From assembly GCA_041648975.1 (NCBI GenBank), contig JBAZNZ010000003.1, forward strand, positions 9,664 to 73,663: a stretch of DNA of 64,000 nucleotides. Reading direction: 5' to 3'. Source of the stretch: Candidatus Omnitrophota bacterium (GTDB taxonomy: Bacteria > Omnitrophota > Gorgyraeia > 2-01-FULL-45-10). The position numbers and the translations under genes were made by a program. Position 1 is the stretch's first letter. Every line of letters begins with the position of its first letter. The notes below the pieces were generated by a model. The model had not been told where the DNA came from. It did no database searches and was given only the letters and a program-made list of their open reading frames with translations. This document shows, one piece after another, positions 5,503-52,062 of this stretch.

Positions 5503-5509
5503 GACATGT

Positions 5510-12774: not shown

Positions 12775-13851
12775 ATGAATAGCATGAAAGACGTTCTAAA
12801 TGTATTCCGCGCAAATTATTCTTTCCGTCAAAAGATGAACTATCTGAAATACCGTTTTTCCGCGAAAGAGGAGACCCTGGGCTACGAACCGATAGTGATT
12901 TCTGTCGTAGCTACGGGACGCTGCACCCTTTCCTGCGACATGTGCCCTACGCACTCGAAGAAAATGCCTAAAGACTACCCGCATATTCAGAGTCCTTCGA
13001 AAGATATTTCATTCGAGGATTTTAAGCGAGCGGTGGACGCGCTCCCCAGGGCTTTACATGTCCATATAATAGGCTCCGGCGAGCCGCTTTTGAACAGGGA
13101 CTTTTTCAGGATAGCCGAATATGCGGCCGTTAAAAAGCGCATGAAGGTAAAGACATTCTCAAACGGCACTACGATAGAGAAGAACATCGATAACATTATC
13201 AACTCGCCGCTTGACGGTATTACCATAAGCCTCAACGGCCATTCTCCAGAGGAATTCAGCCGAATGACGGGATGCCCCAAAGAGACATATTCCAGGATAT
13301 ATGACGCTACGGCCAGGCTAATAAAGGCGCGCGATAGTTCAGGCTCGAAGGTCAAGGTCAAGCTCTCATTCATAATAGACAGGGTAAATTATGTGAATAT
13401 GCCGTTGATGATAGAAACAGGCGAGCGCCTCGGCGCGGATTCGATATTTTTCTGTAACTTTCTTCCGGCCCCTTACAAGGGGTTTACTGCGGACGAGCGC
13501 ATGATATTTACCTATGATTTGAGAGAAATCGATTTTATGAGGGGCGTCTATTCGCGGCTGGATCCGGTCATGAAAAAAAAGATCAGTCTTCCCGACGCGA
13601 TCGATCCTGGCAGGACCAAGAACGGCTGTAATACATATTTTACGCAGATACGCATTGACGGTGAAGGAAGGGCGTCGAGCTGCTCTATAATGCTCTTGAA
13701 TATGAAAGGTAGCGGCCGCGTATGGGATTACGGCGTGTGGAACAACGCGTTCTTCAGAAATATGCGGAAGACCTTCCTCTCGGACAGCGCCGGGCTGCTC
13801 CCCGAGCCATGCCGCGTATGCCCTGAAAATAAAGGCGTTATTTTAAGGTAA
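12775..13851 (+). CDS. Radical SAM protein with C-terminal Cys-rich SPASM/twitch-like domain
   Basis: GRCTLSCDMCPTH (CxxxCxxC). C-terminal cysteines (CNTYF, SSCS, CRVCPE). Confidence 0.75.
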   Translation: MNSMKDVLNVFRANYSFRQKMNYLKYRFSAKEETLGYEPIVISVVATGRCTLSCDMCPTHSKKMPKDYPHIQSPSKDISFEDFKRAVDALPRALHVHIIGSGEPLLNRDFFRIAEYAAVKKRMKVKTFSNGTTIEKNIDNIINSPLDGITISLNGHSPEEFSRMTGCPKETYSRIYDATARLIKARDSSGSKVKVKLSFIIDRVNYVNMPLMIETGERLGADSIFFCNFLPAPYKGFTADERMIFTYDLREIDFMRGVYSRLDPVMKKKISLPDAIDPGRTKNGCNTYFTQIRIDGEGRASSCSIMLLNMKGSGRVWDYGVWNNAFFRNMRKTFLSDSAGLLPEPCRVCPENKGVILR

Positions 13852-13859
13852 AAATATTT

Positions 13860-15398
13860 ATGAGAATACTTTTTATAGATCCATTGGGCGATGAGGAATC
13901 GACCGGCCTGAATATAGGGATAGCGTATTGCGCGGTGAGCCTGATTGAGAGAGGCCATACGGTCAGCATCCTGGATATGGTGAATCTGCGGCAGCATGAC
14001 CCGTTCGAACGCATAGAGGCGGCTGTGAAAAGCCTGGATCCCCATATTGTAGGGATCTCGATAACTAACATGAGTTTTAACAACTCCAGGTCCTGTATAA
14101 AAGATATGAAGCGTTATTTTAAAGGCAAGATATTGCTGGGGGGGCCTGAGATAACGGTGCTGGGCTCCAGGTCGCTGGAGATGATGCCGGAGGCGGATAT
14201 GGCGGTTATCGGCGAGGGAGAGAGAACTCTTCCTGAGCTGTTAAGCGCTCTCGAAGGAGAAAAGGACCTGTCGTCCGTCCAAGGGCTGGTTTGGCGCAGT
14301 CTCGGCAGGATAACGGCCAATCCTCCGCGCCCTTTTATCATGGATCTGGATTCAGTTTCTTTCCCGCAGTATGCCGCCTTCGGCGTAGATGCCATGGACG
14401 TTTATCCTATTATAACAAGCCGCGGCTGCCCCTATGGGTGCATATTCTGTTTTTCGCATCTTGGCAAGAAATGGAGGCCCAGGACCCCGGAGAACATCTT
14501 AAAAGAGATAAAAACGGCTAAAGAAGTTTATCGCGCAAAAATGTTCCATGTAACCGACGCCTCATTTAACGTAGACATAAACCGGGTGGAGAGGTTCTGC
14601 GACCTGCTGATAGAAAATAAGATCGACATGCCCTGGGTTATACAGGGGTTCAGGGCGGACAGGGTAACTGAAAAAATGGTAAAGCGGCTTCATGACGCGC
14701 GCTGCAGGCGCATATGGGTGGGTATAGAGACGCTCGAGCAGGATGTATTCAAAAATATCAATAAAGGGGAAACGATAGACCAGATAAAAAATAGCATTGC
14801 GCTGATGAAGAAGTACGATATGGAGATCTTTGGATACATGTTGATGGGTTTACCGGGAGATACATTCAAGAAAACTTTATGGTCATTTGAAAATGCCCGA
14901 AAGCTCGATCTGGATGTCCTGGCATACTCGTCATGCGTCCCTTTTACCGGGACAGCCATGGAGAAATGGGTGAAGGCGAATGCTGTCAGCCTGGAGGATT
15001 CGTATAACATATCCTCGATAGGAACGCGGTATGACCGTATCGCGTTCGAGACGAACGAATTCTCCGCGAAGGAGAGGGTGCGTGCGCGGATGATCTTAAA
15101 TGTAAAGAGCGGCAGCTATAATGAGCCGGGCCTGCATCCCGTTATTTTCAAGATAAAAAAATGGATATTGATATTGAGATACGATCTTGCCAATATATCG
15201 AAGCGCCTGAAGCAGTCGATCGTATACAGACATCGGTATAAAAAGAGCGTTGATAATATCAATCTTAAGAGGGGGATTTATTTCTCGCGGCTGCCCGACG
15301 GGACGTGGGGAGCGAAAAAAGGCGGATGCGAGCGGAAGGCGCAGGGTAAAAGAATATTTCTGGACCTTAAGCGCCTTGTCGCGCATGAAGTGGACTAG
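13860..15398 (+). CDS. B12-binding radical SAM protein, copy 2
   Basis: MRILFIDPLG B12-domain start, SRGCPYGCIFCFS. Confidence 0.85.
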   Translation: MRILFIDPLGDEESTGLNIGIAYCAVSLIERGHTVSILDMVNLRQHDPFERIEAAVKSLDPHIVGISITNMSFNNSRSCIKDMKRYFKGKILLGGPEITVLGSRSLEMMPEADMAVIGEGERTLPELLSALEGEKDLSSVQGLVWRSLGRITANPPRPFIMDLDSVSFPQYAAFGVDAMDVYPIITSRGCPYGCIFCFSHLGKKWRPRTPENILKEIKTAKEVYRAKMFHVTDASFNVDINRVERFCDLLIENKIDMPWVIQGFRADRVTEKMVKRLHDARCRRIWVGIETLEQDVFKNINKGETIDQIKNSIALMKKYDMEIFGYMLMGLPGDTFKKTLWSFENARKLDLDVLAYSSCVPFTGTAMEKWVKANAVSLEDSYNISSIGTRYDRIAFETNEFSAKERVRARMILNVKSGSYNEPGLHPVIFKIKKWILILRYDLANISKRLKQSIVYRHRYKKSVDNINLKRGIYFSRLPDGTWGAKKGGCERKAQGKRIFLDLKRLVAHEVD

Positions 15399-18055: not shown

Positions 18056-19543
18056 ATGAAAAAGATGCTTAAAGCGACGGCTACGGCAAGCTCGATAACC
18101 GTATCCAATATCTTTACGGCGCTGGTTAGGTCCAAGTTTACGGCTGTTGTTCTCGGAACCTCGGGCGTAGGGCTTTTTTCCCAGGCGTTCAATCTGTTGA
18201 ACTTTTCCATAACGGTAGCGTCTCTGGGCATAGGCAGGGGAGTCACTAAGTACGTTTCCACATTTTCCGCGCAGGATAAGGAAGAAAAGACGTCGTATAC
18301 GATCTCTTTCGCGGTTATGACGCAGCTTGCGGCTACGGTGGCGCTGGCTGTTTTGATGATCGTTTTTTCCGGTTTTGTATCGCGCTACCTATTCCTTTCG
18401 GAAAGTTATTCGAGACTTGTGCTTTTTCTTGCGGTAAGCATCCCTCTGATAGTCTTATCCGGCACGTTTGAGGCGGTGCTTGTAGGATTTGGCCACTATA
18501 AAAATTTTACGTATGGCAGGGTTGCGGCGGCCCTTATTTCTCTTGTGCCGTTATTCGGCTTCATATATTTCATGGGATTCAGGGGGACATTCCCGTATCT
18601 TTTAGCCAGTTCCCTTATAGCGTTCGGCATAGGATACTACCTGATATACCGCAAAGTGCCGAGGGAGGTGTTCGCCTCTATATTTGATTTCCGTAATTTA
18701 ATAAAGAGGTACGATAAGGGCTTGAGCCGGATGATCCTGTCATACGGCGCGACGTCTTTTATTACGGGAGGGCTGGGGCTTTTTTGCGTAGTCTTCTTAA
18801 GGACTATACTCATTAACTATTTCGGCCCTGAAGCAAACGGCCTTTATCAGGTCGTATTCGCCATGTCCGCGAACTACCTGACGCTCTTTACCAACGGGAT
18901 ATGGGCCTACTTTTTCCCCAAGGTCTCTTCTCTGTCCGCCGGCCCGGACAAGCAGGAGTATATGAATGAATTGAATAACGCTTTGAGGTTCTGCCTTGTC
19001 GGGGTTATCCCGTTCGCCGTATGCTTATATATTTTGCGCGATGTTGTCATAAGGGTAGTATTCTCGGTGAAATTCCTTCCGGCCGCGGACCTTTTTTCTA
19101 CACAGCTTGCGGGAGACATGTTCTACCTGATCTTTTATCTGTTATGCGCATCGCTATTGGCCAGGGAGAAATTGAAGATGTACCTGGGCATAGGGCTCGT
19201 ATACAACGCCTGCCTTGTCGTGGTATTTCTATGTGCCGCAGGGCATATGGGCTTGAGGGCTATTACCTTCTCGTATATGGTCTCAAACATGGCCGCAGCT
19301 CTTATCCTCGTGTTTTATCACAGCAGGGTCCTGGGCGTAAAAATATCTCATGATAATTTGAAATTGGCCGTTAAGGGCGCGCTGGTGCTGGGGGCGGTAT
19401 TTTTCACCGGCGACTTCGGAATTTTGGGCGCTCTTCTCAAGACAGTCTTTACCGCGGTATGCATCTATTTCATATTGACGGAACATGAAAGAGGAAAGGT
19501 GTTCGGATATATAAGGTCCAAATTGAGCTATGGCAGAAGATAA
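18056..19543 (+). CDS. Wzx-type oligosaccharide flippase (MOP superfamily polysaccharide biosynthesis protein)
   Basis: 495 aa with about 12-14 transmembrane helices. AAGGCGG Shine-Dalgarno. Sits in a glycosyltransferase block. Confidence 0.7.
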   Translation: MKKMLKATATASSITVSNIFTALVRSKFTAVVLGTSGVGLFSQAFNLLNFSITVASLGIGRGVTKYVSTFSAQDKEEKTSYTISFAVMTQLAATVALAVLMIVFSGFVSRYLFLSESYSRLVLFLAVSIPLIVLSGTFEAVLVGFGHYKNFTYGRVAAALISLVPLFGFIYFMGFRGTFPYLLASSLIAFGIGYYLIYRKVPREVFASIFDFRNLIKRYDKGLSRMILSYGATSFITGGLGLFCVVFLRTILINYFGPEANGLYQVVFAMSANYLTLFTNGIWAYFFPKVSSLSAGPDKQEYMNELNNALRFCLVGVIPFAVCLYILRDVVIRVVFSVKFLPAADLFSTQLAGDMFYLIFYLLCASLLAREKLKMYLGIGLVYNACLVVVFLCAAGHMGLRAITFSYMVSNMAAALILVFYHSRVLGVKISHDNLKLAVKGALVLGAVFFTGDFGILGALLKTVFTAVCIYFILTEHERGKVFGYIRSKLSYGRR

Positions 19544-20495
19544 GATAAGTCTTATTATACCGATGCGGGACGAAGAGGGCTCGGCAAACGCTTTGCTGGC
19601 ATCGGTGTTCGAACAGAGCCGGATACCTGATGAAGTTGTAATTGCGGACGGCGGGTCGACCGACAGGACGCCGGAGATAGTGCGGTCTTTTATAGATAAG
19701 GGATATCCGGTAAATTTTATAAAGTCGGGCGACGCTTATCCGGGGAAGGCCAGGAATATCGCGATAGAGGCGTCGCGCAATGAGCTCATAGCGATGACCG
19801 ACGCGGGTATCACGGTCGATAAGGCGTGGCTTGAGAATCTATACAAAAAGATTAAGGAAGACGCTTCCGTAGATGTCGTATATGGAGTATTTGAGCCAAA
19901 AAAAGACACGATCTTTAAACGGTATTCCTCTATAGCGTTCGTGCCGCCGAAGAGGCACGTTGACGGCAGGCAGATGAGGACGTTCTTCCTTGCCTCTATG
20001 CTGCTTAAGAAGCGCGTCTGGAGGGACATCGGAGGATTGCCGGAAGACCTGAGGTCAGCGGAAGACAGGATATTCATGGAAGAGATAAAAGCGAAGGGAT
20101 ATAAGACGCTCTTCGCTCCCGACGCGCTTGTGACTTGGGACATACCGAGGGGGCCGAAAGAATTATTCGGCAGGTTTTTTCTCTATTCGTATCACGGCGC
20201 GCGGGCCGGAAGGATGAAGGATTGGCATATACCGGTGATCCGGATATATTCCGTTCTCTTGCTCATGGCCGCTATGGGGATAGTCATTTCGCCGCTCTTT
20301 TTTTACGCGCCTCTATTGCTTCTCATGGCAAGAGCTTTCGGGCTTATCCTGGAGAGGGAAGAGGGCGGGCTTTGGCATAAGCTAGATCCTATGCAATTCG
20401 CCGTGGTATTTTTCTGCATGCTTCTTATAGATGCAGCCATGTTCTCAGGCATGGTGAAGTATTTCTTAATAAATAGGAAAGAAAGATGCGCATAA
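19530..20495 (+). CDS. Glycosyltransferase family 2 with C-terminal membrane helices
   Basis: LIIPMRDEEG...VVIADGGSTDRT. Confidence 0.8.
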   Translation: MAEDKISLIIPMRDEEGSANALLASVFEQSRIPDEVVIADGGSTDRTPEIVRSFIDKGYPVNFIKSGDAYPGKARNIAIEASRNELIAMTDAGITVDKAWLENLYKKIKEDASVDVVYGVFEPKKDTIFKRYSSIAFVPPKRHVDGRQMRTFFLASMLLKKRVWRDIGGLPEDLRSAEDRIFMEEIKAKGYKTLFAPDALVTWDIPRGPKELFGRFFLYSYHGARAGRMKDWHIPVIRIYSVLLLMAAMGIVISPLFFYAPLLLLMARAFGLILEREEGGLWHKLDPMQFAVVFFCMLLIDAAMFSGMVKYFLINRKERCA

Positions 20496-23191
20496 CTTTA
20501 ATATATCCGCTGTTATCAAGAAGGCGCGCCTCTGTAGACGAGAATAAGCAGTTCTGGCCGCCGCTGGGTTTGGCATATCTTGCCTCTGTGCTCGAAGACG
20601 CCGGACACAGCGTCCAGATAATAGACAGGGATATAGTGTTGAGGCAGAACTCTCTCGATTTTGGGAAAACAGATCTTATAATGATAGACAGGATAGGGCA
20701 ATTCCGCTCGGATATGGTGGGGATAAGCGCAACGACCCCTAATATGCCGGACGTCGACCATATTTCAGGCGTTATAAAGAAGAACAGGGATATACCGATA
20801 GTTTTGGGCGGCACCCACGCGACAGGCGAGCCCGAGCTTTCCATAGAGGAGTTGAAGAATGTGGATCTCGTCGCCCGCGGCGAAGGTGAGAATATCGTTG
20901 TAAGCCTGGCAAATGGGTTAAATTGGCAGGATATAAATGGACTGACGTTCAGGAAAGGAGCCGATATTATATCGACGCCTGACGCCGAGCCGATATCCGA
21001 CCTGGACAAATTGCCTCTTCCCGCAAGACATCTTCTCGAGATGTCTTATTACACAAGGCCAAGCAGGTTCACGAGCAGGAACCTGAGCCTTAGGACTACT
21101 TCGATATTTACGGCCAGAGGATGCCCGTATAGATGTAATTTCTGCGCGGGGCCGCTGATATTCAACGGAAAGGTCAGGTATCATTCGCCTGAAAGGGTGG
21201 TAAAGGAGGCCGAGGAACTTGCAGACAGGTATGCTGTCGAAGCCTTATATTTTGCGGAGGATATGTTCCTGAGCAATAAGAAGAGGGCCGAAGAGGTGCT
21301 CAATCTTTTTATACAAAAGGGCCTCGACAAGAGGCTGCGGTGGGTCGCCCAGGCTAAGGCGAGCGTCATCACGGAAGACCTCCTGGCGTTCATGAAGAGG
21401 TCCGGGTGCATAGGCGTAGAATACGGGTTCGAATCCGGCTCGCAGCGCGTCCTGGATCTAATGAACAAAAAGATGAAAGTGGAAGAGAGTGTAATGGCCG
21501 CGAGCCTGGCGAAGAAGGCCGGCATGAGATTCCAGGCGAATATCATAGTGGGGTATCCGGGCGAAAAACCGGAAGACTTCAATATGACCATTAAGCTTAT
21601 CAAAAAGACCAGGCCTAACATGATCGGCTTTAACATATTTATGCCGCTTCCGGGAACACAGAGTTACAGAGACCTTAAAGCGGCTGGCAGGGAGCTGCCG
21701 GACTGGCAGGATGTCGGCGATCAGGAGAAGACTCAAGTCAATTACGCGGATATGGGTGAGGGCGTATTCGAAAAGATGTATCTAAGGGCCAGATTCACGA
21801 CGATATTGCCGATAAATTTTTATAATTTCGTAAAAGATAACATCGCCAACCCCGCCAGGCTTTTCAGTGTCCTCACTACGCAGTTCGGCGGGATAATGGT
21901 CAAAACCATGCGGGCGTTTCCGGCGATGCTCGGTGTTAAAAGACGGAAAACACGTGTTGTTTCCCGCATGAATATATTATTCCTGTCTTACAACGGACTT
22001 TTAGAGCCTATACTGCCATCCCAGGGTTTGTCTTATATGAAAGAGCTGAGCAAAAAAGGAGCGAGTTTTGTCCTGTTGACGTATGAGAAAGAGAAAGACC
22101 TGAGAAAGGCCGGAAGGAACGGAATAAAAGACCTGAAAGAGAGCCTTAAAAAAGAAGGTATAGAATGGCATATCCTGAGGTATCATAAATATCCACCGAT
22201 AATATCGACCGTATTCGATCTTACGATGGGCGTGTTATGGTCGTATTTTTTAATGATAGCGAATAATATCAGAGTGGTCCATGTTAGGGGCGTTACGCCC
22301 GGTTTTATCGCGCTCGCCCTGTCCCATATCAGGAAGATTAAAATAATTTTCGATATGAGGGGTTTCCTGGCGGAAGAATATGCCGCCGGCGGGATATGGA
22401 AAGAGGGAAGCGTTATCTATAATATGGTAAAGCGTCTCGAGAAGAATCTTTTAAAACGCGCCGACGCCGTCACAGTTCTTACTAACAAGCACTATGAGTT
22501 TAACGGGGCTTCCGGTTCCGTGAAGCCGGGTTCAAAACCTATGGAGGTCGTGCCATGCTGCGTAGACCTCGGTCGATTCAAACCGGACGCCGCGGAGGCT
22601 AAGCGTATCAGAAAAGAGACCGGCATCGGCAGCCGGTTCGTCTTCATGTATCCCGGTAAGATAGGGACGTTCTATCTTATGGACGAAATGATGGAGTTCT
22701 TTAAGTGCGCCAAAGCACTTATACCCGAAAGCCTGTTTTTAGTATTGACCAAAGACGCCAAGGAGCTTATCGCCGCGTCGGCAAAAGACCACGGTATAGA
22801 TCCGCAGGACATCAGGATAATGACCGCTGAATTTGATGAGATGCCCAAATATCTTAATCTTGCCGACGCCGGGATATTTTTCATCAACCCGTACAAAAAA
22901 ACAGGATCGTCGCCTATAAAGATGGGAGAGTTCCTTTCTTCCGGTATCCCGGTTATAATAAATCCGGGGGTCGGCGATACCGAGGAGATAGTCAGGTCGA
23001 ACCGCGTCGGTGTAGTCGTTGATAAATTCGACAGTGAACATTATGTAAGAGGGGTCAAAGAAATAACGGACCTCCTCGCCGGGGACGGCGGACTGAAAGA
23101 ACGGTGCAGGGACACTGCAAGAAGTTATTTATCGCTGGAAGAAGGCGTTAATAAATATTACAAAATATACGAAAGCCTGATCAAGGTATGA
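20486..23191 (+). CDS. Fusion protein: N-terminal B12-binding radical SAM domain (copy 3, about aa 1-480) plus C-terminal GT4 glycosyltransferase domain (about aa 495-901)
   Basis: MRITLIYPLL and RGCPYRCNFCAGP in the N-terminal half. In-frame continuation through MNILFLSYNGLLEPILPSQGLSY...glycos_transf_1 region GIPVIINPGVGDTEEIV. No stop codon between the domains. Confidence 0.8.
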   Translation: MRITLIYPLLSRRRASVDENKQFWPPLGLAYLASVLEDAGHSVQIIDRDIVLRQNSLDFGKTDLIMIDRIGQFRSDMVGISATTPNMPDVDHISGVIKKNRDIPIVLGGTHATGEPELSIEELKNVDLVARGEGENIVVSLANGLNWQDINGLTFRKGADIISTPDAEPISDLDKLPLPARHLLEMSYYTRPSRFTSRNLSLRTTSIFTARGCPYRCNFCAGPLIFNGKVRYHSPERVVKEAEELADRYAVEALYFAEDMFLSNKKRAEEVLNLFIQKGLDKRLRWVAQAKASVITEDLLAFMKRSGCIGVEYGFESGSQRVLDLMNKKMKVEESVMAASLAKKAGMRFQANIIVGYPGEKPEDFNMTIKLIKKTRPNMIGFNIFMPLPGTQSYRDLKAAGRELPDWQDVGDQEKTQVNYADMGEGVFEKMYLRARFTTILPINFYNFVKDNIANPARLFSVLTTQFGGIMVKTMRAFPAMLGVKRRKTRVVSRMNILFLSYNGLLEPILPSQGLSYMKELSKKGASFVLLTYEKEKDLRKAGRNGIKDLKESLKKEGIEWHILRYHKYPPIISTVFDLTMGVLWSYFLMIANNIRVVHVRGVTPGFIALALSHIRKIKIIFDMRGFLAEEYAAGGIWKEGSVIYNMVKRLEKNLLKRADAVTVLTNKHYEFNGASGSVKPGSKPMEVVPCCVDLGRFKPDAAEAKRIRKETGIGSRFVFMYPGKIGTFYLMDEMMEFFKCAKALIPESLFLVLTKDAKELIAASAKDHGIDPQDIRIMTAEFDEMPKYLNLADAGIFFINPYKKTGSSPIKMGEFLSSGIPVIINPGVGDTEEIVRSNRVGVVVDKFDSEHYVRGVKEITDLLAGDGGLKERCRDTARSYLSLEEGVNKYYKIYESLIKV

Positions 23192-24267
23192 AAGTGTTAT
23201 TTATAGTTCCGTATCCGAACGAAGGCGCCTCTAACCGTCTCAGGGTGGAGCAGTTCCTGCCGTATTTAAGAGCGAACGGCATAGAATATACCTTAAGGCC
23301 GTTTATCGGAAGGGGCTTTTACAGGATATTATACCTGCGTCATAAATACTTGAAGAAGATATTGTTCTTCATTTTTGCCACAGTGGCCAGGATCTCGGAC
23401 ATATTCAGGGCCATGGCGCATGATATAATATTTATTCACCGCGAGGCGTATCCATTCGGCCCGCCCGTATTCGAACATATATTCCGCTGTCTCGGCAAGC
23501 CGATCATATACGATTTCGACGACGCGATATTTTTGCGCAATACGAGCGGTATAAATAATTACATCGAGAGGTTTAAGAATCCGGGTAAGATATCGGGGAT
23601 AGTAAGCCTAAGCCGGTATGTCATAGCCGGCAACCGGTATCTTCGCGATTTCGCGGCTAGATTTAATATAAATGTTATAATAATACCCACCACCATAGAT
23701 ACCGATATGTACCGTCCGCCGGCCAGGCGGCCGGACAAAAAAGAAGTGGTCATAGGATGGATAGGGAGCAATACGACAAGAAGGTTCCTGCGGGATATGG
23801 AGGACGTATTCAAAGAATTGTCCGCCCGTTACGACAATCTGGTATTCAAGATCGTCGGCGGTTATCATCACTCCGAATTAAAGAACGTCGTGAATATTGA
23901 ATGGTCCATGGAAAGAGAGATAGAGCTCCTGGGGACATTCGATATCGGCATAATGCCGATGCCGGACGATGAATGGACGCGCGGGAAGTGCGCTTTCAAG
24001 GCGATACTGTATATGGCATGCGGTATCGTGCCGGTCTGCTCTCCCGTTGGGGTGAATACGGAGGTCGTGCAGGACGGGGTGAACGGTTACCTGGCCAACG
24101 ACAAGAGCGAATGGGTCGGGAAACTATCGGCCCTCATAGAGGATAGGGGCCTGAGGGAAAGGATGGCCGCCTCGGCCAGGGCCCTTGTGGAAAAAAAATA
24201 TTCGGTGAAAACTTATGAGCCGGTTTTTCTCAGGACATTGAGAGCGGCGGGAAGTGAAAATGGCTAG
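23188..24267 (+). CDS. Glycosyltransferase family 4
   Basis: MKVLFIVPYPNEGASNRL, IGWIGSNT, CGIVPVCSPVGVNTEVV. Confidence 0.8.
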   Translation: MKVLFIVPYPNEGASNRLRVEQFLPYLRANGIEYTLRPFIGRGFYRILYLRHKYLKKILFFIFATVARISDIFRAMAHDIIFIHREAYPFGPPVFEHIFRCLGKPIIYDFDDAIFLRNTSGINNYIERFKNPGKISGIVSLSRYVIAGNRYLRDFAARFNINVIIIPTTIDTDMYRPPARRPDKKEVVIGWIGSNTTRRFLRDMEDVFKELSARYDNLVFKIVGGYHHSELKNVVNIEWSMEREIELLGTFDIGIMPMPDDEWTRGKCAFKAILYMACGIVPVCSPVGVNTEVVQDGVNGYLANDKSEWVGKLSALIEDRGLRERMAASARALVEKKYSVKTYEPVFLRTLRAAGSENG

Positions 24268-25681
24268 GATAGCGTTCCTTCAGCATATATGGTACGAGAC
24301 AATGGGCCCCATGTATCTCTCGGCGTCGGTCAAGGCCCGCGGCCACGAATGCGAAATGTTCATAGGCAGGGAGGACAGGATACTGGATGAGATCACGCGT
24401 TACAGGCCGGACATAGCGTGCTTTTCCGTCATGACGGCGCAGTTTCCCTGGGCCATAGCCCTGGCCGAGAAGATAAAGAGAAGTAACAGCGATATCGTCG
24501 TAGCTTTCGGCGGCGCGCATCCGACATTTTTCCCTGAAATGATAGAAGAGAAATCTGTCGATGTGATATGCGTCGGAGAAGGTGAACTCGCTTTGTCGGA
24601 GCTTGCCGACGCCCTAGACGCCGGGAAGGATATCACGGCTATAAAGAACCTGCATGTAAAACCAGGGGGCAGGGTCTATAAAAACGAGGTCAGGGACTTC
24701 GTGTCCGATATCGATACCCTGCCGCCGCCTGACAGGGCGCTCTACTACAAGTATCCTTTTCTGGCGAAAAGCCCTGAGAAATCGTTCATGTGCGGCAGGG
24801 GATGCCCTTATAACTGCACCTTCTGTTTCAACCATATATACATGCGTCTTTACAAGGACAAGGGGCCGTTCGTAAGATATCGGAAGGTGGAGAGCGTGAT
24901 CAGGGAGCTTATCGATGTGAAGAGTAAATACGGCCTTGAGCTCGTATACTTCCAGGACGACACATGGGTGCTTAACAAAAAATGGCTGTATGAATTCCTG
25001 CCGCGATATAAAAAAGAGGTGAGGCTTCCCTTCATAGCTTATGTGCGGGGCAATATGGTCGATGATGAACTCGCTTTCAAGCTAAAGGATGCGGGCTGCA
25101 GGGTGGTCGATATGGGGGTCGAGACCGGTGATGAGGCGCGCCGCAACGCGATACTGAAAAAAGGGATAACGGATTTCGATCTGGAGAACGCGGCCCGGTT
25201 ATTCCGGAAGCACAAACTTATGTTCAGGACCACAAATATGCTGGGCCTGCCGGGAGAGACGATTGACCAAGCGCTGAGGACCCTCGATGTCAACATTAAA
25301 CTCAGGCCGAATTTCAGCTGGTGCTCGATATTCCAGCCGTTCCCAAAACTCGAGCTTACGGATATGGCCATAGCAGAGGGGTATATTCCTAAGGATGGGA
25401 GTCTGAAGATAGGGGGGTCATACAAAACGAGCCTTCTGAATATGCCGGACATAAAACGCATCGTAAACCTCCAAAAATTCTTCATAATAACGGTCAAGTA
25501 TCCGTCGCTGTCGCCGCTGGTCAAAATATTGATACGGTTTCCAAATAATGCCCTGTATGATGTTATCGGATTTTTATGCTACGCTTTCATGTATTACAGA
25601 TACACGGGCACAAGTTTCATAAGGCTTCTAAGGGAAGCGGTCAGGATGTTCTCGGAAAAAAGCTATGAACATGTATCATAG
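24260..25681 (+). CDS. B12-binding radical SAM protein, copy 4
   Basis: CGRGCPYNCTFCFNH. GTG 24254 / ATG 24260 start with 8-nt overlap of the upstream stop. Confidence 0.85.
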   Translation: MARIAFLQHIWYETMGPMYLSASVKARGHECEMFIGREDRILDEITRYRPDIACFSVMTAQFPWAIALAEKIKRSNSDIVVAFGGAHPTFFPEMIEEKSVDVICVGEGELALSELADALDAGKDITAIKNLHVKPGGRVYKNEVRDFVSDIDTLPPPDRALYYKYPFLAKSPEKSFMCGRGCPYNCTFCFNHIYMRLYKDKGPFVRYRKVESVIRELIDVKSKYGLELVYFQDDTWVLNKKWLYEFLPRYKKEVRLPFIAYVRGNMVDDELAFKLKDAGCRVVDMGVETGDEARRNAILKKGITDFDLENAARLFRKHKLMFRTTNMLGLPGETIDQALRTLDVNIKLRPNFSWCSIFQPFPKLELTDMAIAEGYIPKDGSLKIGGSYKTSLLNMPDIKRIVNLQKFFIITVKYPSLSPLVKILIRFPNNALYDVIGFLCYAFMYYRYTGTSFIRLLREAVRMFSEKSYEHVS

Positions 25682-25693
25682 CGGAAGACGGCA

Positions 25694-26665
25694 ATGATCG
25701 TAAAGACATACAGGTTAAAAGACAGAGGGGCCGCCGGCCAGGATATCTCGTCCTGGACAGAGGATTGGGATAAGGTGCAAAACCTGGCCCGGGGCGCGGA
25801 AGGCACAGACCGAAACCACCTCTCTTTCTTCCTGAAGAAATATTTTCCGCGCCCGCCCGCCAGGATACTCGACGGCGGATGCGGCACGGGCAGATATGTG
25901 ATATCGTACAGGTCAAAAGGATATGACATTACGGGGGTGGATTTCTCCGAGGAGACTATCAGGCGCATCAAGGCGGAGATGGGTGAGGATTATCCCGTCC
26001 AAACAGCTGATATAACGGCCCTTCCGTTCAAAGACGATGCGTTCGACTGCTATTTATCCGGCGGCGTAATGGAGCATTTCGAGGACGGCCCCGACAGGGC
26101 GCTTAGGGAAGCGCACAGGGTCCTGAAAAAAGGGAGCGGTATATTGCTTATGACCGTTCCTTATGTCAATGTCATTCGGAGGACACGGCTTTGTATTTCA
26201 GGCAAGAGGAAGGCCGGCGGACTTTTCCATAGAGTGGTTAAGAAGTGCGGTGTAGATACGGACAGCTGTCCGGGCCTATTATTTTGCGAATACGCTTTTG
26301 ACGCAGGCTCGATAAGTTTTTATCTTGAGAATAACGGGTTTAAAGTGAAGAAGGTCTACCCTACGGATTTTTTATGGGGTGAAATCGGTTCCCTGCTGCG
26401 CCGGTTTATGGTATCGCCACGCGCATCGTCGGGGACAGCGCCGCAGAAGACAGTATCCGCCGGCCAGATGGTAAGGGCCGGAATGGGACGTAATAATGCG
26501 ATAAGGGACACGATGTATGACCTGTTCGTTACGGAGAACAGAGAAAGATTGTTGTATAGATCGACGATCGGCAAGCTTAACCACCTGAGTGGTCATATGG
26601 TGCTCATAGTAGCCAGAGTTCTGCCGCGAACTGCGCAAGGAGAGGATGTCCATGAGCGAAAATAA
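25694..26665 (+). CDS. Class I SAM-dependent methyltransferase (type 11/12)
   Basis: ILDGGCGTGRYV motif I, GGVMEHFED post-I region. Confidence 0.8.
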   Translation: MIVKTYRLKDRGAAGQDISSWTEDWDKVQNLARGAEGTDRNHLSFFLKKYFPRPPARILDGGCGTGRYVISYRSKGYDITGVDFSEETIRRIKAEMGEDYPVQTADITALPFKDDAFDCYLSGGVMEHFEDGPDRALREAHRVLKKGSGILLMTVPYVNVIRRTRLCISGKRKAGGLFHRVVKKCGVDTDSCPGLLFCEYAFDAGSISFYLENNGFKVKKVYPTDFLWGEIGSLLRRFMVSPRASSGTAPQKTVSAGQMVRAGMGRNNAIRDTMYDLFVTENRERLLYRSTIGKLNHLSGHMVLIVARVLPRTAQGEDVHERK

Positions 26666-27401
26666 TAACGTAGATGTCAGCATAATCGTAGCCTGTTATA
26701 ATGACGCCCCTCATCTAAAGAACAATGTCGGCCAGATCATGGATATAATGGATACGACCAGATACTCATACGAGATCATATTTGTAGACGACAAGAGCCG
26801 CGATAATTCCAGGGATATGATAGATCAGATCATCGCCGAGCATCCCGGCCGGCGCCTGAGTAAAAAATTCCACGAACAGAATATGGGAAGAGGCCGCAGC
26901 GTTACCGACGGATTTATCGCCGCGAAAGGGAGGATCATGGGATATCTCGACATCGACCTCGAGATACACGCAAGGTATATACCTTCGGTGCTGCTCGAAA
27001 TAGAAAAAGGCGCCGACTTTGTCATTGCCAGAAGATTATTCGACCTCAATTATCATTCCATCGTACGGTTCATAGTGAGCAAGGGCTATATCAGGTTCTC
27101 CGGCATGGTCCTAGGCATGAAGGGGATAGATTCGGAAAGCGGGTTTAAGTTCTTTAACAGGAAGACGATGATGGGGGTAATAAATAGCGTCAAGGACGGC
27201 CACTGGTTCTGGGACACGGAGGTCGTCTGCCGGTCGAGACTCGCCGATAAAAAGATCATCGAGGTGCCGGCTCTATTTGTAAAATTACCGCACAAGCCCA
27301 GTACCGTAAGATTTTCAAAGGATATTGCCGATTATGTAATAAAGATATTCAAGTTCAGGCGGGAACTGCGGGAAGATATATGCAAAACAAAAGGGAGGTG
27401 A
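26646..27401 (+). CDS. GT2 polyprenyl-phosphate glycosyltransferase (Dpm1-like), second copy
   Basis: VSIIVACYNDAPHL...YEIIFVDDKSRDNS. Confidence 0.8.
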   Translation: MSMSENNNVDVSIIVACYNDAPHLKNNVGQIMDIMDTTRYSYEIIFVDDKSRDNSRDMIDQIIAEHPGRRLSKKFHEQNMGRGRSVTDGFIAAKGRIMGYLDIDLEIHARYIPSVLLEIEKGADFVIARRLFDLNYHSIVRFIVSKGYIRFSGMVLGMKGIDSESGFKFFNRKTMMGVINSVKDGHWFWDTEVVCRSRLADKKIIEVPALFVKLPHKPSTVRFSKDIADYVIKIFKFRRELREDICKTKGR

Positions 27402-27403
27402 AC

Positions 27404-29218
27404 ATGTCATACATATCATACGTGGCGGCTTTCGTATGTCTGTTTGCGGCTGGTTTTCTCACGACCCTTTTTACGCTCGAGATAAAGTCGATATACATAC
27501 AAGGAATATTTTGGAAGATGCCGCTCCCGGTAATATATTGGGGATTGGCTGTTCTATACGCATTCACCCATAGCAGGTTGTTTAAGGCCGGTTTTAAGAA
27601 CTCCCTGGCTCGTATAATAAAGCCCTGGCTCCTGGCGGAGCTGGCCGTTTTGCTGGTCGATCTTCATGTCAGGCTTGGCGCTTCAAATCCGCTTAACAAG
27701 GTGTATATGGTATACGTGATTGCTGTTATGCTGGCCGTTTTTGCCCTTGTGGGGTATCTTGCCGCGTGTTTTGCGAAAGACTGCTTTACAAAAAAGAGCG
27801 GTTTATTTGACATCGGATTAATATATCTTATGACATTCATTGCGCTTTCGGGCATTCTTTTGAAAAGCGGATTTGTTGCGGGGCTTCTGGCGATGGTTGG
27901 AGCGTTCGGCGCGTCGTTCGTCGTTGACGCCGGCGTCACATTCGGAAGAGCAGCGCGCGCAGTTTCGAAATTCTTTGAGAAGAGATGGAAATTCCTTGTA
28001 TTTGTGTATCTGCTGGCGGTCATTCTTCGCATCATGTTCGGGGTGATACTCATAATACAGACTGGGGAGCGTTTTACCGTCGCCAGCTGCGACGGACTCA
28101 GCTACGACGAGAACGCGCAGATGATAGCCAAGGATTTCAAATCCCTTTTTGACGGCTCGCTCGTCTTCGTCGTATTCGGTCCCTACTATTGGATATTCTT
28201 AGGCCTTATTTATAAAATATTCGGCAGGAACTTCTATGCGGTATCTTTCATACAGAGCATCCTGGCCTCTTTCATGGCGCCGCTGGTCTATTATATTATG
28301 CTCAAACTGACCAGCCAGGAGAGGATGGCCAGGCTTGCCGCCATATTGACGGCATTGTGCATGTCGCTTGTATATCTTGCCGCGGTGCTCCAGCCCGAGG
28401 CTCTCATGATACCGCTATTATACCTGTATGTGCTTTTACTGGCAGGCTATTCCGAAAAAGGAAAAAATATTATAGGTATATCGGCACTAACAGGGCTCGT
28501 CTTCGGCCTCATGAACGGCGTGCGGTCCATAATGGTCCTCTTTCCGGTGTTCGCCTTTATATGGCTTCTCTTTTTTGTAAAAAGCATGGGCCTGAGGTCG
28601 AAGGTGGTCAACTTCATACTGTTCCTCGCCGTTACGTTCATCGCGACCTACCCGGCGGAATACATGTACTCAAAATACCGGAACGCCGATTTTACGCAAG
28701 ATGCAAATACGCTCGTCATAAGCCAGGGGGTGGGGACGTTCAGGCACCATCATTCGGAACTCGACAAGCTCGGCTTCAACCCGTTCGCCAGTATCACAGG
28801 CTCGATAAAGGCGCTCCAGGAGCATCCCGTCGAGATCCCCACCATATTCCTTAAGAAAGTAGCGGTCAACATCCATGCCTTCTTTTTCATAACGTTCTTC
28901 GGGTTCTTCAATCCTTTTATTCTCGTCCTGCCGTCCAGGTACTATAACGCTTTCGGCTCGTACATGCTTTCCTACATATACATCTTTATCATACTTGGCG
29001 CATTCCTGTGGTTCTCGAAAAAAAACAGGCGGGACCTCGTCTGGCTGTTTTTCCTGATCTTTGTGTATTATTTCATATCGCATCCTCTGTTTTTTACCAT
29101 AAGGACCGGCCGCCACAGGGCGCCGCTCCATCCGTTCTTTATTATGCTGTTCGTGATAGGTTTCTATTATGTATGGGATTGTATTAAAAAATGGGAAAAG
29201 AACCGGAAGATAAAATGA
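27404..29218 (+). CDS. Polytopic membrane protein, putative GT-C (ArnT/PMT-like) glycosyltransferase, second copy
   Basis: About 604 aa, hydrophobic throughout. GGGAGGTG Shine-Dalgarno at 27393-27400 precedes ATG 27404. Downstream of a Dpm1-like GT2. Confidence 0.5.
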   Translation: MSYISYVAAFVCLFAAGFLTTLFTLEIKSIYIQGIFWKMPLPVIYWGLAVLYAFTHSRLFKAGFKNSLARIIKPWLLAELAVLLVDLHVRLGASNPLNKVYMVYVIAVMLAVFALVGYLAACFAKDCFTKKSGLFDIGLIYLMTFIALSGILLKSGFVAGLLAMVGAFGASFVVDAGVTFGRAARAVSKFFEKRWKFLVFVYLLAVILRIMFGVILIIQTGERFTVASCDGLSYDENAQMIAKDFKSLFDGSLVFVVFGPYYWIFLGLIYKIFGRNFYAVSFIQSILASFMAPLVYYIMLKLTSQERMARLAAILTALCMSLVYLAAVLQPEALMIPLLYLYVLLLAGYSEKGKNIIGISALTGLVFGLMNGVRSIMVLFPVFAFIWLLFFVKSMGLRSKVVNFILFLAVTFIATYPAEYMYSKYRNADFTQDANTLVISQGVGTFRHHHSELDKLGFNPFASITGSIKALQEHPVEIPTIFLKKVAVNIHAFFFITFFGFFNPFILVLPSRYYNAFGSYMLSYIYIFIILGAFLWFSKKNRRDLVWLFFLIFVYYFISHPLFFTIRTGRHRAPLHPFFIMLFVIGFYYVWDCIKKWEKNRKIK

Positions 29219-30654
29219 AAAAGGCGTTCCTTTTATATCCGCCTACCGGATTGTACGACAGGTCGGACCGCTGCCAGTCGTACCTGGAGAGTGAAACAGG
29301 GGCTTTGGTCTCTCCTCCGATGGACATACTTTATATGGCCGCTGTATTGGAGAAGGCCGGATACAGATGCTTTGTCAGGGACTATACCATCGAAAAGAAA
29401 GGGTGGGCCGATGTGCGCCTGGACCTCGAGAGAGAGCTGCCTTCCGTGCTCGTTGTGAGCACAACGATGTCTACGCTGAAAGAGGACTTGAAGGCCTGCG
29501 ATATGGCTAAGGGCATTAAACCTGACTGTCTAACGGTCGCTAAAGGAGGATATGTAGGGGATGACAGCGAGGCGCTGCTCAGGGTCAACGGGAACCTGGA
29601 TATATTTATCAATAACGAACCGGAATTCGTGATTCGGGAGATAGTTTCTCTATCGCGCCTGCAGGATATAAGAGGCATAAGCTATAGGGCATACGGCCGG
29701 ACCTTCACAAACCAGCCCAGGCCTTTTGGGGACGATCTCGATTCTCTTCCTCTGCCTGCCAGGCACCTGATAAGGAACGAATTATACAGGATGCCGGACA
29801 CGCGCAGACGGTTCACGACCATATTGACAGGAAGGGGCTGTCCGTTCAAATGCATTTATTGCATGGCAGGTAAGGTCGGCGGCGCACACCTGAGGCTGCG
29901 ATCGCCGGAGAACATCGTCCGCGAGCTTGAAGAATGCATGACGCGGTTCGGCATAAAGGATTTCTGGATGAGGGCGGACACGTTCACTTTCGATAAGAAG
30001 TGGGTTGCCGAGATATGCCGTCTTATCACAGATAAGGGGCTGCATATAAAGTGGATGACGAACAGCCGCGTGGACAGGATAGACGATGAGATGCTGTACG
30101 CGATGAAACGTTCAGGCTGCACGGTAATAGGTTTCGGCATAGAGAGCGGCAACCAGGGACTTCTCGACAGGATGAAGAAGGGTATAACCCTGGAGCAGTC
30201 GCGCAGGGCCGTGGAGATGTGCCGAAAGCACCGGATAAAGACCTACCTTAACTTCATCGTAGGGCTTCCCTGGGAAAGCGAGGAGACTTTCGAAGAGACG
30301 ATAAGGTTCGCGAAGTCGTTAAAGGCGGATATGTATAATTTCAGCATCTCATACCCATTTCCGGGGACGGAGTTGTATGAATATGTGAAAGAGAAAGGGC
30401 TCCTGAAGTCCGACGAGGATCTGAAGACTTACGGGTTTTTCGAGCCCGTCGCGGATACGCATTACATGAAGCGCGAGAGGCTGGGCCGGCTGAAGGAGGC
30501 CGCTTTCAGGAAGGTCATGCTCGACCCGCGTTTCGTTCTCAGGACCATATCGAATATGAGGTCGCCCGCCTTGATCGCGGCTTATTGCAGGGAAGCGGCG
30601 CGGCTTTTAGGCGTAATCTACGGGAAAACCAGGAAAGGGAAAGGGCCGAGATGA
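29215..30654 (+). CDS. B12-binding radical SAM protein, copy 5
   Basis: MKKAFLLYPP start (ATGA overlap), TGRGCPFKCIYCMAG. Confidence 0.85.
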   Translation: MKKAFLLYPPTGLYDRSDRCQSYLESETGALVSPPMDILYMAAVLEKAGYRCFVRDYTIEKKGWADVRLDLERELPSVLVVSTTMSTLKEDLKACDMAKGIKPDCLTVAKGGYVGDDSEALLRVNGNLDIFINNEPEFVIREIVSLSRLQDIRGISYRAYGRTFTNQPRPFGDDLDSLPLPARHLIRNELYRMPDTRRRFTTILTGRGCPFKCIYCMAGKVGGAHLRLRSPENIVRELEECMTRFGIKDFWMRADTFTFDKKWVAEICRLITDKGLHIKWMTNSRVDRIDDEMLYAMKRSGCTVIGFGIESGNQGLLDRMKKGITLEQSRRAVEMCRKHRIKTYLNFIVGLPWESEETFEETIRFAKSLKADMYNFSISYPFPGTELYEYVKEKGLLKSDEDLKTYGFFEPVADTHYMKRERLGRLKEAAFRKVMLDPRFVLRTISNMRSPALIAAYCREAARLLGVIYGKTRKGKGPR

Positions 30655-31421
30655 CCGGAAAAAGAGTGTCGGACTCATGGGAGGAATTCCTTAGCCGCGG
30701 CGGGGTCTATTTCCCGAAAGATGTGGACAGAGGATTCTTTTCGGACATATTGTCATCGCGCTGGGTAGTATCCCTATTGAAGGACGGATCCCGTAAAAAA
30801 TTCCTGTCGGCGGGATGCGGGCTGGGAAGGTTTGCCATTGCCATAGCCGCAGCAGGGCGGGATGTTGCTTTGATGGATTGTTCGGAAGAGTCTCTCAACG
30901 CCGCTAGACTGCTGGGGGAGATAGCCAAACGGCACTTCGGCGACATTAGCATCAGGTTCTTAAAGGACGACTTGGAACGTACCTCGTTCGCGGACGGCGA
31001 GTTCGATGTTACATTTAATGAGGGCGTTGTGGAGCACTGGCTTGACCGCGGCGAGAGGATAAAGGTGATAAAGGAAATGGCGAGGATAACAAGGGATGGA
31101 GGGGTTGTTTCGATAAGGGTAATTAATAATAAGAACCCTTTATATAATCTCATATACAAGAAAGCGCTGAGGGAAGACGTGCCTGCGCACCACAGGTATG
31201 ACATGAGAGAGCTAAAGGCCGAGATGGAAGACGCAGGGCTCGATCCTGTCCTGTGGGACGGTGAGACGATCAATGATCCGGACGAATACTCCGCGAACAA
31301 GCTCCTGATAAAGACGCTTCGCATTGCGGCCCTGGCAATAAACACGGCCCCCAAATTCGTCAGGGAGGCTTTCTGTCCTTCGATATTCTGCACGGCGATT
31401 GTAAGGAGGACGCGGCCATGA
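30651..31421 (+). CDS. Class I SAM-dependent methyltransferase, second copy
   Basis: LSAGCGLGRFAIA motif I, EGVVEHW. ATGA overlap with the upstream gene. Confidence 0.75.
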   Translation: MTGKRVSDSWEEFLSRGGVYFPKDVDRGFFSDILSSRWVVSLLKDGSRKKFLSAGCGLGRFAIAIAAAGRDVALMDCSEESLNAARLLGEIAKRHFGDISIRFLKDDLERTSFADGEFDVTFNEGVVEHWLDRGERIKVIKEMARITRDGGVVSIRVINNKNPLYNLIYKKALREDVPAHHRYDMRELKAEMEDAGLDPVLWDGETINDPDEYSANKLLIKTLRIAALAINTAPKFVREAFCPSIFCTAIVRRTRP

Positions 31422-32833: not shown

Positions 32834-33565
32834 ATGAGAGCGAAAAATATAAAGCGCGCGGCCATTATTCTGGTGTGCGTGTTAATAGTCGCCGGCGTTC
32901 TTAACTTACAGGTTTCAATACGGCAGAACATCGACGGTAAGACGCGGAGGATCACTATGCCGCTTTATGTGAAGTGGATAGAGTTTCTGTCGCGCCATTA
33001 TGAATACGACAGGATCGCGAAAGAGGTCGCCTCCTCCCGCAGGACGGACGCGGAAAAGGCATTGGCCATTTTTAAATGGACCGGCGATAGTATTAAAAAA
33101 GTGCCGCAAGGCATGCCGGTAGTAGATGACCATATCTATAATATTATCGTGAGGGGGTACGGCACCGACAGCCAATCGCAGGACGTCTTTACTACACTCT
33201 GTTCCTATGCTCATGTGCCGGCATTCTGGGAGAGGGTCTACTACAACGACCGCAAGTCGATGTTCATTATGTCATTTGTCAAATTGAACGGCAAGTGGGC
33301 TATCTTCGATTCGTATAATGGGACGTATTTCATGACCGCGGACGGGAAGATTGCTACTATCGATGATATGTCCGGCAAGGACTTCGGGGATTCGTCTTAT
33401 AGGGGAGTTCCTTTTAGCGAGCTGAAACAGGAATTGGAGCGTATTTTGAATGAAAAAAGGACGACTCGTCCCGAGAAACAGATGCCCGCAAGAAGGATAT
33501 GGTTTGAGATCAAAAAAGTCTTGGGTATAGAGAAAGAGGATGAGAAGGAGAGCGGAGAGGTATAA
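32834..33565 (+). CDS. Hypothetical membrane-anchored protein (possible transglutaminase-like Cys/His domain)
   Basis: N-terminal transmembrane helix AAIILVCVLIVAGVL. Segment GYGTDSQSQDVFTTLCSYAHVPAFWERVYY loosely resembles the transglutaminase-core Cys region. Confidence 0.4.
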   Translation: MRAKNIKRAAIILVCVLIVAGVLNLQVSIRQNIDGKTRRITMPLYVKWIEFLSRHYEYDRIAKEVASSRRTDAEKALAIFKWTGDSIKKVPQGMPVVDDHIYNIIVRGYGTDSQSQDVFTTLCSYAHVPAFWERVYYNDRKSMFIMSFVKLNGKWAIFDSYNGTYFMTADGKIATIDDMSGKDFGDSSYRGVPFSELKQELERILNEKRTTRPEKQMPARRIWFEIKKVLGIEKEDEKESGEV

Positions 33566-47130: not shown

Positions 47131-47147
47131 GAGAAGGCGGGTGCGAT

Positions 47148-52060: not shown

Positions 52061-52062
52061 GC

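Follow-up and report, generated by a model that had tools for sequence, protein, structure and literature searches.

A class B radical SAM unit and a GT4-like glycosyltransferase domain in one reading frame: a predicted bifunctional enzyme from a glycan cluster of Candidatus Omnitrophota

Class B radical S-adenosylmethionine (radical SAM, rSAM) enzymes are one of the largest enzyme pools of unknown function, for which the assignment of substrates is the bottleneck. Described members, such as TsrM, MgmA, TokK, CysS, AprD4, OxsB, HpnJ and BchE, have an N-terminal Rossmann-like B12 domain, a partial TIM-barrel core with a CxxxCxxC motif and a C-terminal helical region, and carry no glycosyltransferase (GT) domain. 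Here we describe a gene of a Candidatus Omnitrophota bacterium (GenBank assembly GCA_041648975.1, contig JBAZNZ010000003.1, positions 9,664 to 73,663; this whole stretch of 64,000 nucleotides is called the window), in which a unit with the same three parts is joined, unlike in these enzymes, to a GT domain that we call GT-X. Omnitrophota is an uncultured phylum whose members are often ultra-small and host-associated, and their surface is likely central to this lifestyle.

Pathways in which a GT attaches a hexose and a radical SAM enzyme then remodels the sugar have precedents in bacteriohopanetetrol cyclitol ether synthesis (HpnI/HpnK/HpnJ) and in calditol synthase, Cds (PMC13459092). The logic is the same, but those systems consist of separate proteins acting on lipids, whereas the Omnitrophota system is one chain, or a pair of coupled genes, in a polysaccharide cluster. 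GenK and GenD1 of aminoglycoside pathways are B12-rSAM enzymes for C-methylation of sugar carbons in a glycosylated intermediate; they belong to secondary-metabolite pathways and, unlike the fusion, stand alone, neither fused to nor paired with a GT. On the side of the GT, the closest described enzymes are the GT4 retaining enzymes of GT-B fold (BshA, MshA, PimB', HepE and sucrose-phosphate synthase, SPS), with which GT-X shares the two-Rossmann fold and a Lys/Glu pair in the nucleotide-binding loop of the C-domain. The XrtA/PEP-CTERM exopolysaccharide (EPS) modules (TIGR03108 amidotransferase, stp2 and stp3) supply the best NCBIfam families for the AsnB-like protein, GT-X and the GT that follows it (GT3), all of them below the cut-offs. 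The gene order AsnB/GT-X/GT3 is widespread in Bacteroidota, Acidobacteriota and Gemmatimonadota, and the Omnitrophota version adds a B12-rSAM.

The open reading frame (ORF) of the fused gene, read directly from 20486 to 23191 of the plus strand, runs through 901 codons without interruption. An earlier note on this DNA had claimed a continuous ORF of 901 amino acids (aa) holding a complete B12-binding/rSAM unit and a complete GT domain, and this is borne out by the reading of the ORF, Pfam, AlphaFold2 and Foldseek; the two strings that it quoted are present as well (RGCPYRCNFCAGP at aa 211-223 and MNILFLSYNG from nt 21968, which is M495). One objection would be that a one-base indel at an ATGA-type overlap had joined two genes in this assembly only. 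In its favor, the closest split relative (locus L001) has an ATGA overlap, so that a one-base change would join the frames, and a Met is retained at the start of the GT in the window. However, a second assembly of a near-identical strain carries the same 901-aa ORF on a separate 37.6-kb contig, with two substitutions, M337R and N654S (P0001, MDD5421808.1); another entry, on a 104-kb contig, is identical to the window protein (P0263, MFA4981085.1). The closest distinct relative (P0015, 74% identity; a partial protein at a contig end) reads across the junction as ...IIRPKALFLSYNG, with Pro at the position of M495. In a search over 5.8 billion proteins, we obtained 47 full-length fused homologues (861-910 aa, 45-60% identity, 97-100% coverage) from independent assemblies of NCBI, JGI, ENA and Logan, and in 44 of these 47 the junction residue is not Met. 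Besides, no Shine-Dalgarno-like purine run precedes the ATG at 21968 (the preceding sequence is GTTGTTTCCCGC), while the starts at 20486 and 23188 do carry one. The artefact is thus rejected, its probability being negligible. Among the fused homologues the linker varies in length, with 21-32 residues between two conserved anchor columns.

At the level of sequence and modelled fold, the N half has the defining features of the radical SAM superfamily and of its B12-binding class B. The Pfam matches are well above their cut-offs, with 76.6 bits for B12-binding (PF02310; cut-off 32.1) and 87.9 bits for Radical_SAM (PF04055; cut-off 29.5). Foldseek against the PDB matched the N half to TsrM, MgmA (9ccb), AprD4, CysS, TokK and OxsB, all of them B12-rSAM structures, with an identity of only 15-21%. 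These closest structures are a mixture of methylases (TsrM, MgmA, TokK and CysS), the sugar diol-dehydratase AprD4 and the ring-contracting OxsB; AprD4 has a similar domain, and the binding of cobalamin by the N half is a prediction only. The helical extension contains a conserved TQFxGV segment, which is found in the split rSAM proteins too. A named equivalog for the N half was ruled out, because every NCBIfam score is far under its cut-off: ApyD with 178 bits (cut-off 750), BchE with 169 (481), HpnJ with 163 (578), which leaves orthology to HpnJ unsupported, MgmA with 115 (360), AprD4 with 89 (500) and PhpK with 129. The family of the ladderane-lipid B12-rSAM also matches, again far below the family cut-off, and the HpnR and GenK-like families are below their cut-offs as well.

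For the C half, the Pfam scores fall slightly below the gathering scores: Glyco_transf_4 at aa 519-697 with 26.7 bits (gathering 28.5), Glyco_trans_1_4 at aa 751-860 with 26.7 bits (gathering 27) and a further GT4-type match with 21.9 bits (gathering 26.4). Several homologues, however, have precomputed hits to these Pfam families. The GT fold is supported by the AlphaFold2 model, in which the predicted local distance difference test (pLDDT) is about 85-95 across aa 495-900 and the C half is a GT-B fold with two Rossmann-like domains. The Foldseek matches are the retaining GT4 enzymes BshA, MshA, SPS, HepE and PimB', with target-normalised TM-scores of 0.77-0.81. GT-X differs from these enzymes in its EX7E motif, which is incomplete: E815 aligns with the second Glu of E-SFGLVLL-E in BshA, and the position of the first Glu is taken by Gly807, Gly being the commonest residue there but found in only 23 of the 47 fused members. 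The SPIKxGE loop is more like the loop CPYKLGA of Gtf3 in the alignment. Since the Pfam scores are below the cut-offs and the first Glu is Gly807, we call the domain GT4-like rather than a proven retaining GT4; the claim of a GT4 retaining enzyme is supported in part, for the fold, and retention is a prediction. The closest NCBIfam family of the C half is stp3 (TIGR04063, an EPS-type GT) with 58.9 bits and E=4e-16 (cut-off 442), and GT-X of Flavisolibacter reaches 86 bits against the same cut-off. The C half was accepted neither as a bona fide GT4 nor as an stp3 member, because the cut-offs are missed and EX7E is incomplete.

The AlphaFold2 model of the 901-aa protein, for which the alignment of the 47 homologues was the input, has a mean pLDDT of 87 and a predicted TM-score (pTM) of 0.57, and pLDDT below 50 is confined to aa 196-199 and to the linker at aa 485-492. 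This pTM and the disordered linker point to two well-folded bodies on a tether, whose arrangement to each other the model does not settle. Foldseek found no PDB chain that covers both halves (query-normalised TM-score at most 0.40). Pfam, the model and the structural matches together indicate that both halves are complete domains. In all 47 fused members C213, C217, C220, G108, G109 and H111 of the rSAM/B12 half and H599, R601, G602, D623, K812 and E815 of the GT half are invariant, so both domains are under purifying selection. No hydrophobic stretch resembling a transmembrane segment was seen in a hydrophobicity scan of the fused protein, and it is predicted to be a soluble or peripheral cytoplasmic bifunctional enzyme. 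The features are listed in Table 1.

Table 1. Positions in the window of the fused gene, its parts and the adjoining genes
Feature	Position	Strand	Basis or remark
Whole fused gene, B12-rSAM and GT-X glycosyltransferase	20486..23191	+	901 aa plus stop; ORF without internal stop
B12-binding (Rossmann-like) domain, aa 19-141	20540..20908	+	PF02310, E=1.9e-21; fold like TsrM, MgmA, TokK
Radical SAM core, aa 209-372	21110..21601	+	PF04055, E=1.1e-24
CxxxCxxC motif for a [4Fe-4S] cluster, C213-P-Y-R-C217-N-F-C220	21122..21145	+	read directly; three Cys invariant in 47/47
Two long C-terminal helices of the rSAM half, aa 425-487 (425-452, 456-487)	21758..21946	+	AlphaFold2 model; common to fused and split forms
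Lys/Arg-rich linker of variable length, aa 485-494	21938..21967	+	pLDDT <50 at 485-492; K 20%, R 11%
GT-X, GT-B-fold, GT4-like glycosyltransferase, aa 495-901	21968..23188	+	Pfam, Foldseek, orthology to stand-alone GT genes
Predicted nucleotide-sugar binding segment, S808-SPIKMGEFLSSGIP-V823	22907..22954	+	alignment to BshA 3mbo and Gtf3 4w6q; K812 and E815 invariant in 47/47
Wzx-type flippase	18056..19543	+	Polysacc_synt; closest NCBIfam family WzxE
Upstream GT2 with C-terminal hydrophobic helices (stretches at 233-303)	19530..20495	+	end overlaps the start of the fusion; homologue upstream in L007, L012, L014
Downstream partner GT3, 359 aa, Glyco_trans_1_4	23188..24267	+	start overlaps the stop of the fusion (ATGA); 59% identity to the gene at the same position in L001
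Next B12-rSAM paralogue, 475 aa, 29% identity to the N half	24254..25681	+	overlaps the end of GT3; best NCBIfam match HpnJ

The two halves also occur as separate genes. Stand-alone relatives of the N half exist, for instance a protein of 505 aa with 64% identity (P0052), and the contigs of the split forms always carry an rSAM gene first, then a GT of about 400 aa and then another of about 357 aa. Of these three, the middle gene is the orthologue of the C half of the fusion (54% identity over 405 aa in L001, 35-36% in L002 and L004), and Met1 of the stand-alone GT-X genes aligns with M495. The third gene of L001 is orthologous to GT3 of the window. The rSAM and GT-X genes of L001 overlap by ATGA, so that this locus differs from the window in reading frame only.

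We scanned the GTDB species representatives with a profile of the GT half and obtained 51 loci. In 14 of the 51 an rSAM orthologue is directly upstream of GT-X; six of these are fused (L011, L012, L013, L014, L020 and L021) and eight are split (L009, L010, L015, L017, L019, L022, L023 and L057), the genes of the split pairs either overlapping by 4-17 nt or lying 2-13 nt apart. Altogether, the rSAM lies directly 5' of GT-X on the same strand, either fused or at most about 13 nt apart, in the window and in L001, L002, L004, L007, L009-L015, L017, L019-L023 and L057. The remaining GTDB loci, from Bacteroidota, Acidobacteriota, Gemmatimonadota and others, have GT-X, usually GT3 and often an AsnB-like amidotransferase directly upstream, and no rSAM. 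This module of AsnB-like amidotransferase, GT-X and GT3 without rSAM (L024-L056) is found in Bacteroidota, Acidobacteriota and Gemmatimonadota and also in cultured strains that would be open to genetic work, Flavisolibacter ginsengisoli (L031, 4097-8252) and Niabella hirudinis (L053) being examples, and its AsnB-like protein is closest to the XrtA/PEP-CTERM amidotransferase TIGR03108, under the cut-off.

Neighbour-joining trees of the two halves are broadly congruent. In the tree of GT-X, the rSAM-associated sequences form one clade in which fused and split forms are interleaved, and this interleaving points to several switches of the junction. For the three states fused, split and no rSAM, we obtained a Fitch count of 8 changes, a number to be taken as approximate because these are distance trees without support values. 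It appears from these comparisons that an older GT-X/GT3 module gained the B12-rSAM partner once, in the Omnitrophota lineage, and that the stop/start junction has toggled repeatedly since then. A few of the carrier metagenome-assembled genomes are labelled Nitrospirae, Planctomycetia or Parcubacteria, and these labels may be binning errors. Nitrospirae bacterium GWF2_44_13 (L023, 4552-5968) has a frameshifted rSAM upstream of GT-X, where the tblastn match changes frame after about residue 244; it is either a pseudogene or an assembly error.

Related fusions were found elsewhere in the protein set. P0190 (1879 aa) has the order B12-rSAM, methyltransferase, GT2, methyltransferase, GT2 and B12-rSAM, which mirrors part of the window at 24254-32830 (rSAM, methyltransferase, GT2, then rSAM, methyltransferase, rSAM). 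Two proteins of about 2300 aa (P0160 and P0185) contain five rSAM units each, one SPASM and four others, of which at least three have a B12-binding domain. In a further set of proteins (P0196, P0186, P0208, P0122-P0126 and P0211), GT-X is joined to a GT-C (PMT_2-like) domain, as in P0196, to GT2 domains that precede or follow it, or to other GT4 domains. Another set (P0061, P0067, P0082, P0084 and P0072) consists of related B12-rSAMs joined to a different GT4 (P0061), to Methyltransf_11/class-I methyltransferases (P0067, P0082 and P0084) or to TPR repeats. A preprint on complete genomes of Omnitrophota reports the co-occurrence of radical SAM and GT1 Pfam domains in giant proteins (10.64898/2026.06.07.730766).

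Comparison of the loci shows that the rSAM and GT-X are obligate neighbours in this lineage which have co-evolved; where they are not one chain with a flexible linker of about 10-20 residues between them, their translation is coupled by overlapping stop/start codons. The conserved adjacency, the overlapping stop/start codons, the repeated fusion and the congruent trees of the halves are the grounds for saying that the rSAM probably works with the GT. The earlier note had gone further, stating that the rSAM enzymes of this locus act on the glycan or on the glycosyl donor itself. The partnership with the GT is supported; the identity of the substrate does not follow from the fusion, because the junction is labile (6 fused, 8 split) and the GT family works without an rSAM in other phyla. 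As relatives carry mega-fusions of rSAM, GT2 and methyltransferase, an extension of the glycan-acting view to all rSAM genes of the locus is plausible.

We cautiously favor the reading that the protein is a bifunctional enzyme of a Wzx-dependent surface-glycan pathway (EPS or O-antigen-like), which would add a sugar and tailor it by radical chemistry. GT-X would move a sugar from a nucleoside diphosphate (NDP)-sugar onto a lipid-linked oligosaccharide. The tethered B12-rSAM would then make a 5'-deoxyadenosyl radical, take a hydrogen atom from the new or an adjacent sugar and tailor it, and the fusion or tight complex would pass the membrane-bound intermediate between the active sites. In support of this reading, the genes around the fusion encode a Wzx flippase, GT2, GT4 and GT-C transferases, sugar aminotransferases, NeuB and CMP-transferases and an AsnB-like amidotransferase, and the independent fusions of related B12-rSAMs to other GTs (P0061 and P0190) count for it too. 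So do the precedents of HpnI/HpnK/HpnJ and calditol synthase and the place of AprD4, a 1,2-diol dehydratase of sugars, among the nearest solved structures. Since GT-X works without the rSAM elsewhere, the rSAM would be a tailoring add-on, not needed for glycosyl transfer. As to the chemistry, C-methylation via methylcobalamin would be the most likely single outcome, at a little under an even chance, and it is ranked first because most class B enzymes are annotated as methylases (PMC13459092). The main alternatives, ring contraction of the HpnJ/OxsB type or deoxygenation of the AprD4 type, come second and are put forward tentatively.

Several points weigh against this reading. Relatives of GT-X work without an rSAM in other phyla. 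The junction flips often and the lineage fuses many neighbours, so that the fusion may reflect co-expression more than substrate channelling. With a pTM of 0.57, the model gives no confident prediction of how the two domains are oriented to each other. The type of reaction cannot be read from homology, since all equivalog scores are so far under the cut-offs, and the donor, the acceptor, the chemistry and the use of cobalamin are all predictions.

The main rival takes up the second of these points: the two domains would catalyse separate, non-consecutive steps of the same glycan pathway and would have been joined without channelling, because overlapping neighbours fuse easily in a fusion-prone lineage. 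The eight changes of junction state and the occurrence of 6 fused and 8 split forms among the GTDB representatives agree with it, and so do the fusions of GT-X to GT2, other GT4s and GT-C, the mega-fusions of rSAM, methyltransferase and GT domains and the giant Omnitrophota proteins with radical SAM and GT1. Against it stand an rSAM that is always directly upstream of GT-X and not of other genes (14 GTDB species and the metagenome loci), the congruence of the half-trees, the single clade of rSAM-associated GT-X and a fused state kept across lineages at 45-60% identity. On balance we regard fusion without channelling as unlikely, though it is the most probable of the rivals.

Less probable still is a remodelling of glycolipid head groups, in which GT-X would glycosylate a membrane lipid or polyprenyl carrier and the rSAM would contract or rearrange the ring of the sugar, or modify the lipid, as in HpnI/HpnJ or calditol synthase. 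HpnJ and BchE, besides the ladderane-lipid B12-rSAM, are among the best NCBIfam matches of the N half, HpnJ is also the best match of the paralogue at 24254, many GT4 enzymes produce glycolipids (PimB' is among the fold matches) and precedents have been reviewed (PMC13459092). Yet all matches of lipid type are far under the family cut-offs, the closest named family of GT-X is the EPS-type stp3, and the gene content is that of a classical heteropolysaccharide cluster: there are Wzx flippases, many GTs and genes for nucleotide sugars and nonulosonic acids, and none for lipid synthesis. The rSAM might instead prepare the donor by modifying an NDP-sugar before GT-X transfers it. Some B12-rSAM enzymes act on nucleotide-linked substrates, such as Fom3 on a CMP-linked substrate and OxsB on nucleotides; OxsB is among the fold matches of the N half, and the order of the domains, rSAM and then GT, would suit such a sequence of steps. 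But the nucleotide-sugar-binding residues that are invariant in GT-X are the same whether or not a clade has the rSAM, and nothing separates donor modification from tailoring after transfer. We consider preparation of the donor very improbable.

With regard to novelty, the claim that this domain architecture is not described holds in so far as no paper describing or characterizing the fusion or the rSAM/GT-X pair was found in the full-text literature, a scope outside which most subscription journals lie; the one match for the two domains together, PMC7159879, deals with conflict systems. The public databases, on the other hand, already contain 50 or more of these proteins, as "radical SAM protein" at NCBI and under the two-part name [quoted passage not shown] at IMG. 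We infer an enzyme with two activities, in which the tailoring of the glycan falls to an uncharacterised class B rSAM domain. In evolutionary terms the fusion itself is unremarkable, and its value is the clue that it gives to the substrate of an orphan B12-rSAM subfamily: the fused and split pair directs the search for the substrate of this uncharacterised subfamily to the product of the attached GT. As a single chain, the fusion would also be convenient to express in a heterologous host.

If the favored reading is true, radical and probably cobalamin-dependent chemistry would extend from antibiotics, ribosomally synthesized and post-translationally modified peptides (RiPPs), cofactors and lipids to bacterial surface polysaccharides, and unusual sugars would be expected in Omnitrophota. 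The fusion or pair points to a possibly extensive radical tailoring of their surface glycan. About ten rSAM genes in the window, together with the mega-fusions of rSAM, methyltransferase and GT in relatives, speak for an entire tailoring system and not for one isolated oddity. A bolder and decidedly tentative idea is that several B12-dependent rSAMs tailor the Omnitrophota surface glycan at unactivated carbons, by C-methylation, ring contraction or deoxygenation, each of them tied physically, through fusion or a translationally coupled complex, to the GT that installs its substrate, like an assembly line. It would be the first class B rSAM chemistry on a primary bacterial surface polysaccharide, with the 901-aa protein as the simplest experimentally tractable module.

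The 64-kb window is essentially one glycan cluster on the plus strand. Its nucleotide-sugar enzymes include RmlD-like, UDP-glucose dehydrogenase, epimerases/dehydratases, five DegT aminotransferases, UDP-GlcNAc 2-epimerase and a PglD-like acetyltransferase, and the cluster also encodes GT2, GT4 and GT-C (PMT_2-like) transferases, class-I methyltransferases and an AsnB-like amidotransferase. GT3 follows GT-X in most loci, including those free of rSAM. In L001, L002, L004, L007, L012 and L017 a PMT_2-like GT-C is directly upstream of the rSAM/GT-X pair; no homologue of this gene was found in the window at E <1e-5, and the GT-C genes of the window itself (7837-9591 and 27380-29218) are too divergent.

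Besides the fusion, nine rSAM genes are located in the window (5462-6943, 12775-13851, 13860-15398, 24254-25681, 29191-30654, 31418-32830, 54107-55492, 55496-56545 and 60056-61693), seven of which are related to the N half (25-31% identity), one is of SPASM type and one is a plain rSAM. A B12-binding domain is detectable by Pfam in six of the seven relatives. Most of the nine adjoin a GT or class-I methyltransferase gene, and their density is unusually high for a glycan cluster.

Two NeuB-type nonulosonic-acid synthases and three CMP-sugar cytidylyltransferases (36486-38164, 47127-47999, 52057-52782 and 58820-59611) are encoded with several DegT aminotransferases nearby, and the cluster seems to encode two or more pathways to nonulosonic or ulosonic acids. 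There are also two Wzx-type flippase genes, the one of Table 1 (18056-19543) and another at 56549-58033, so the window may hold two adjoining glycan pathways instead of one. The rSAM gene at 60056-61693, close to the 3' end of the cluster, has genes for an HpcH/HpaI-type aldolase and for an FkbH-like/HAD protein next to it (58046-58816 and 61690-63573). FkbH-type enzymes usually load glyceryl units, and the FkbH-like/HAD protein suggests a non-sugar substituent.

A 255-aa protein at 45596-46363 matches the MbnB/TglH/ChrH (DUF692) family of RiPP modification (E=1.6e-9), an odd place in the middle of a sugar cluster, and two ORFs without Pfam match are upstream of it (42450-43664 and 43666-45633). 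Finally, many loci encode, immediately after the rSAM/GT-X/GT3 module, a protein of some 240 aa whose match to the transglutaminase core is weak at best (for example L001, 9813-10562, and L007, 11766-12461), and its homologue in the window (32834-33565) is about 9 kb downstream of the module, the identity among them being 35-52%.

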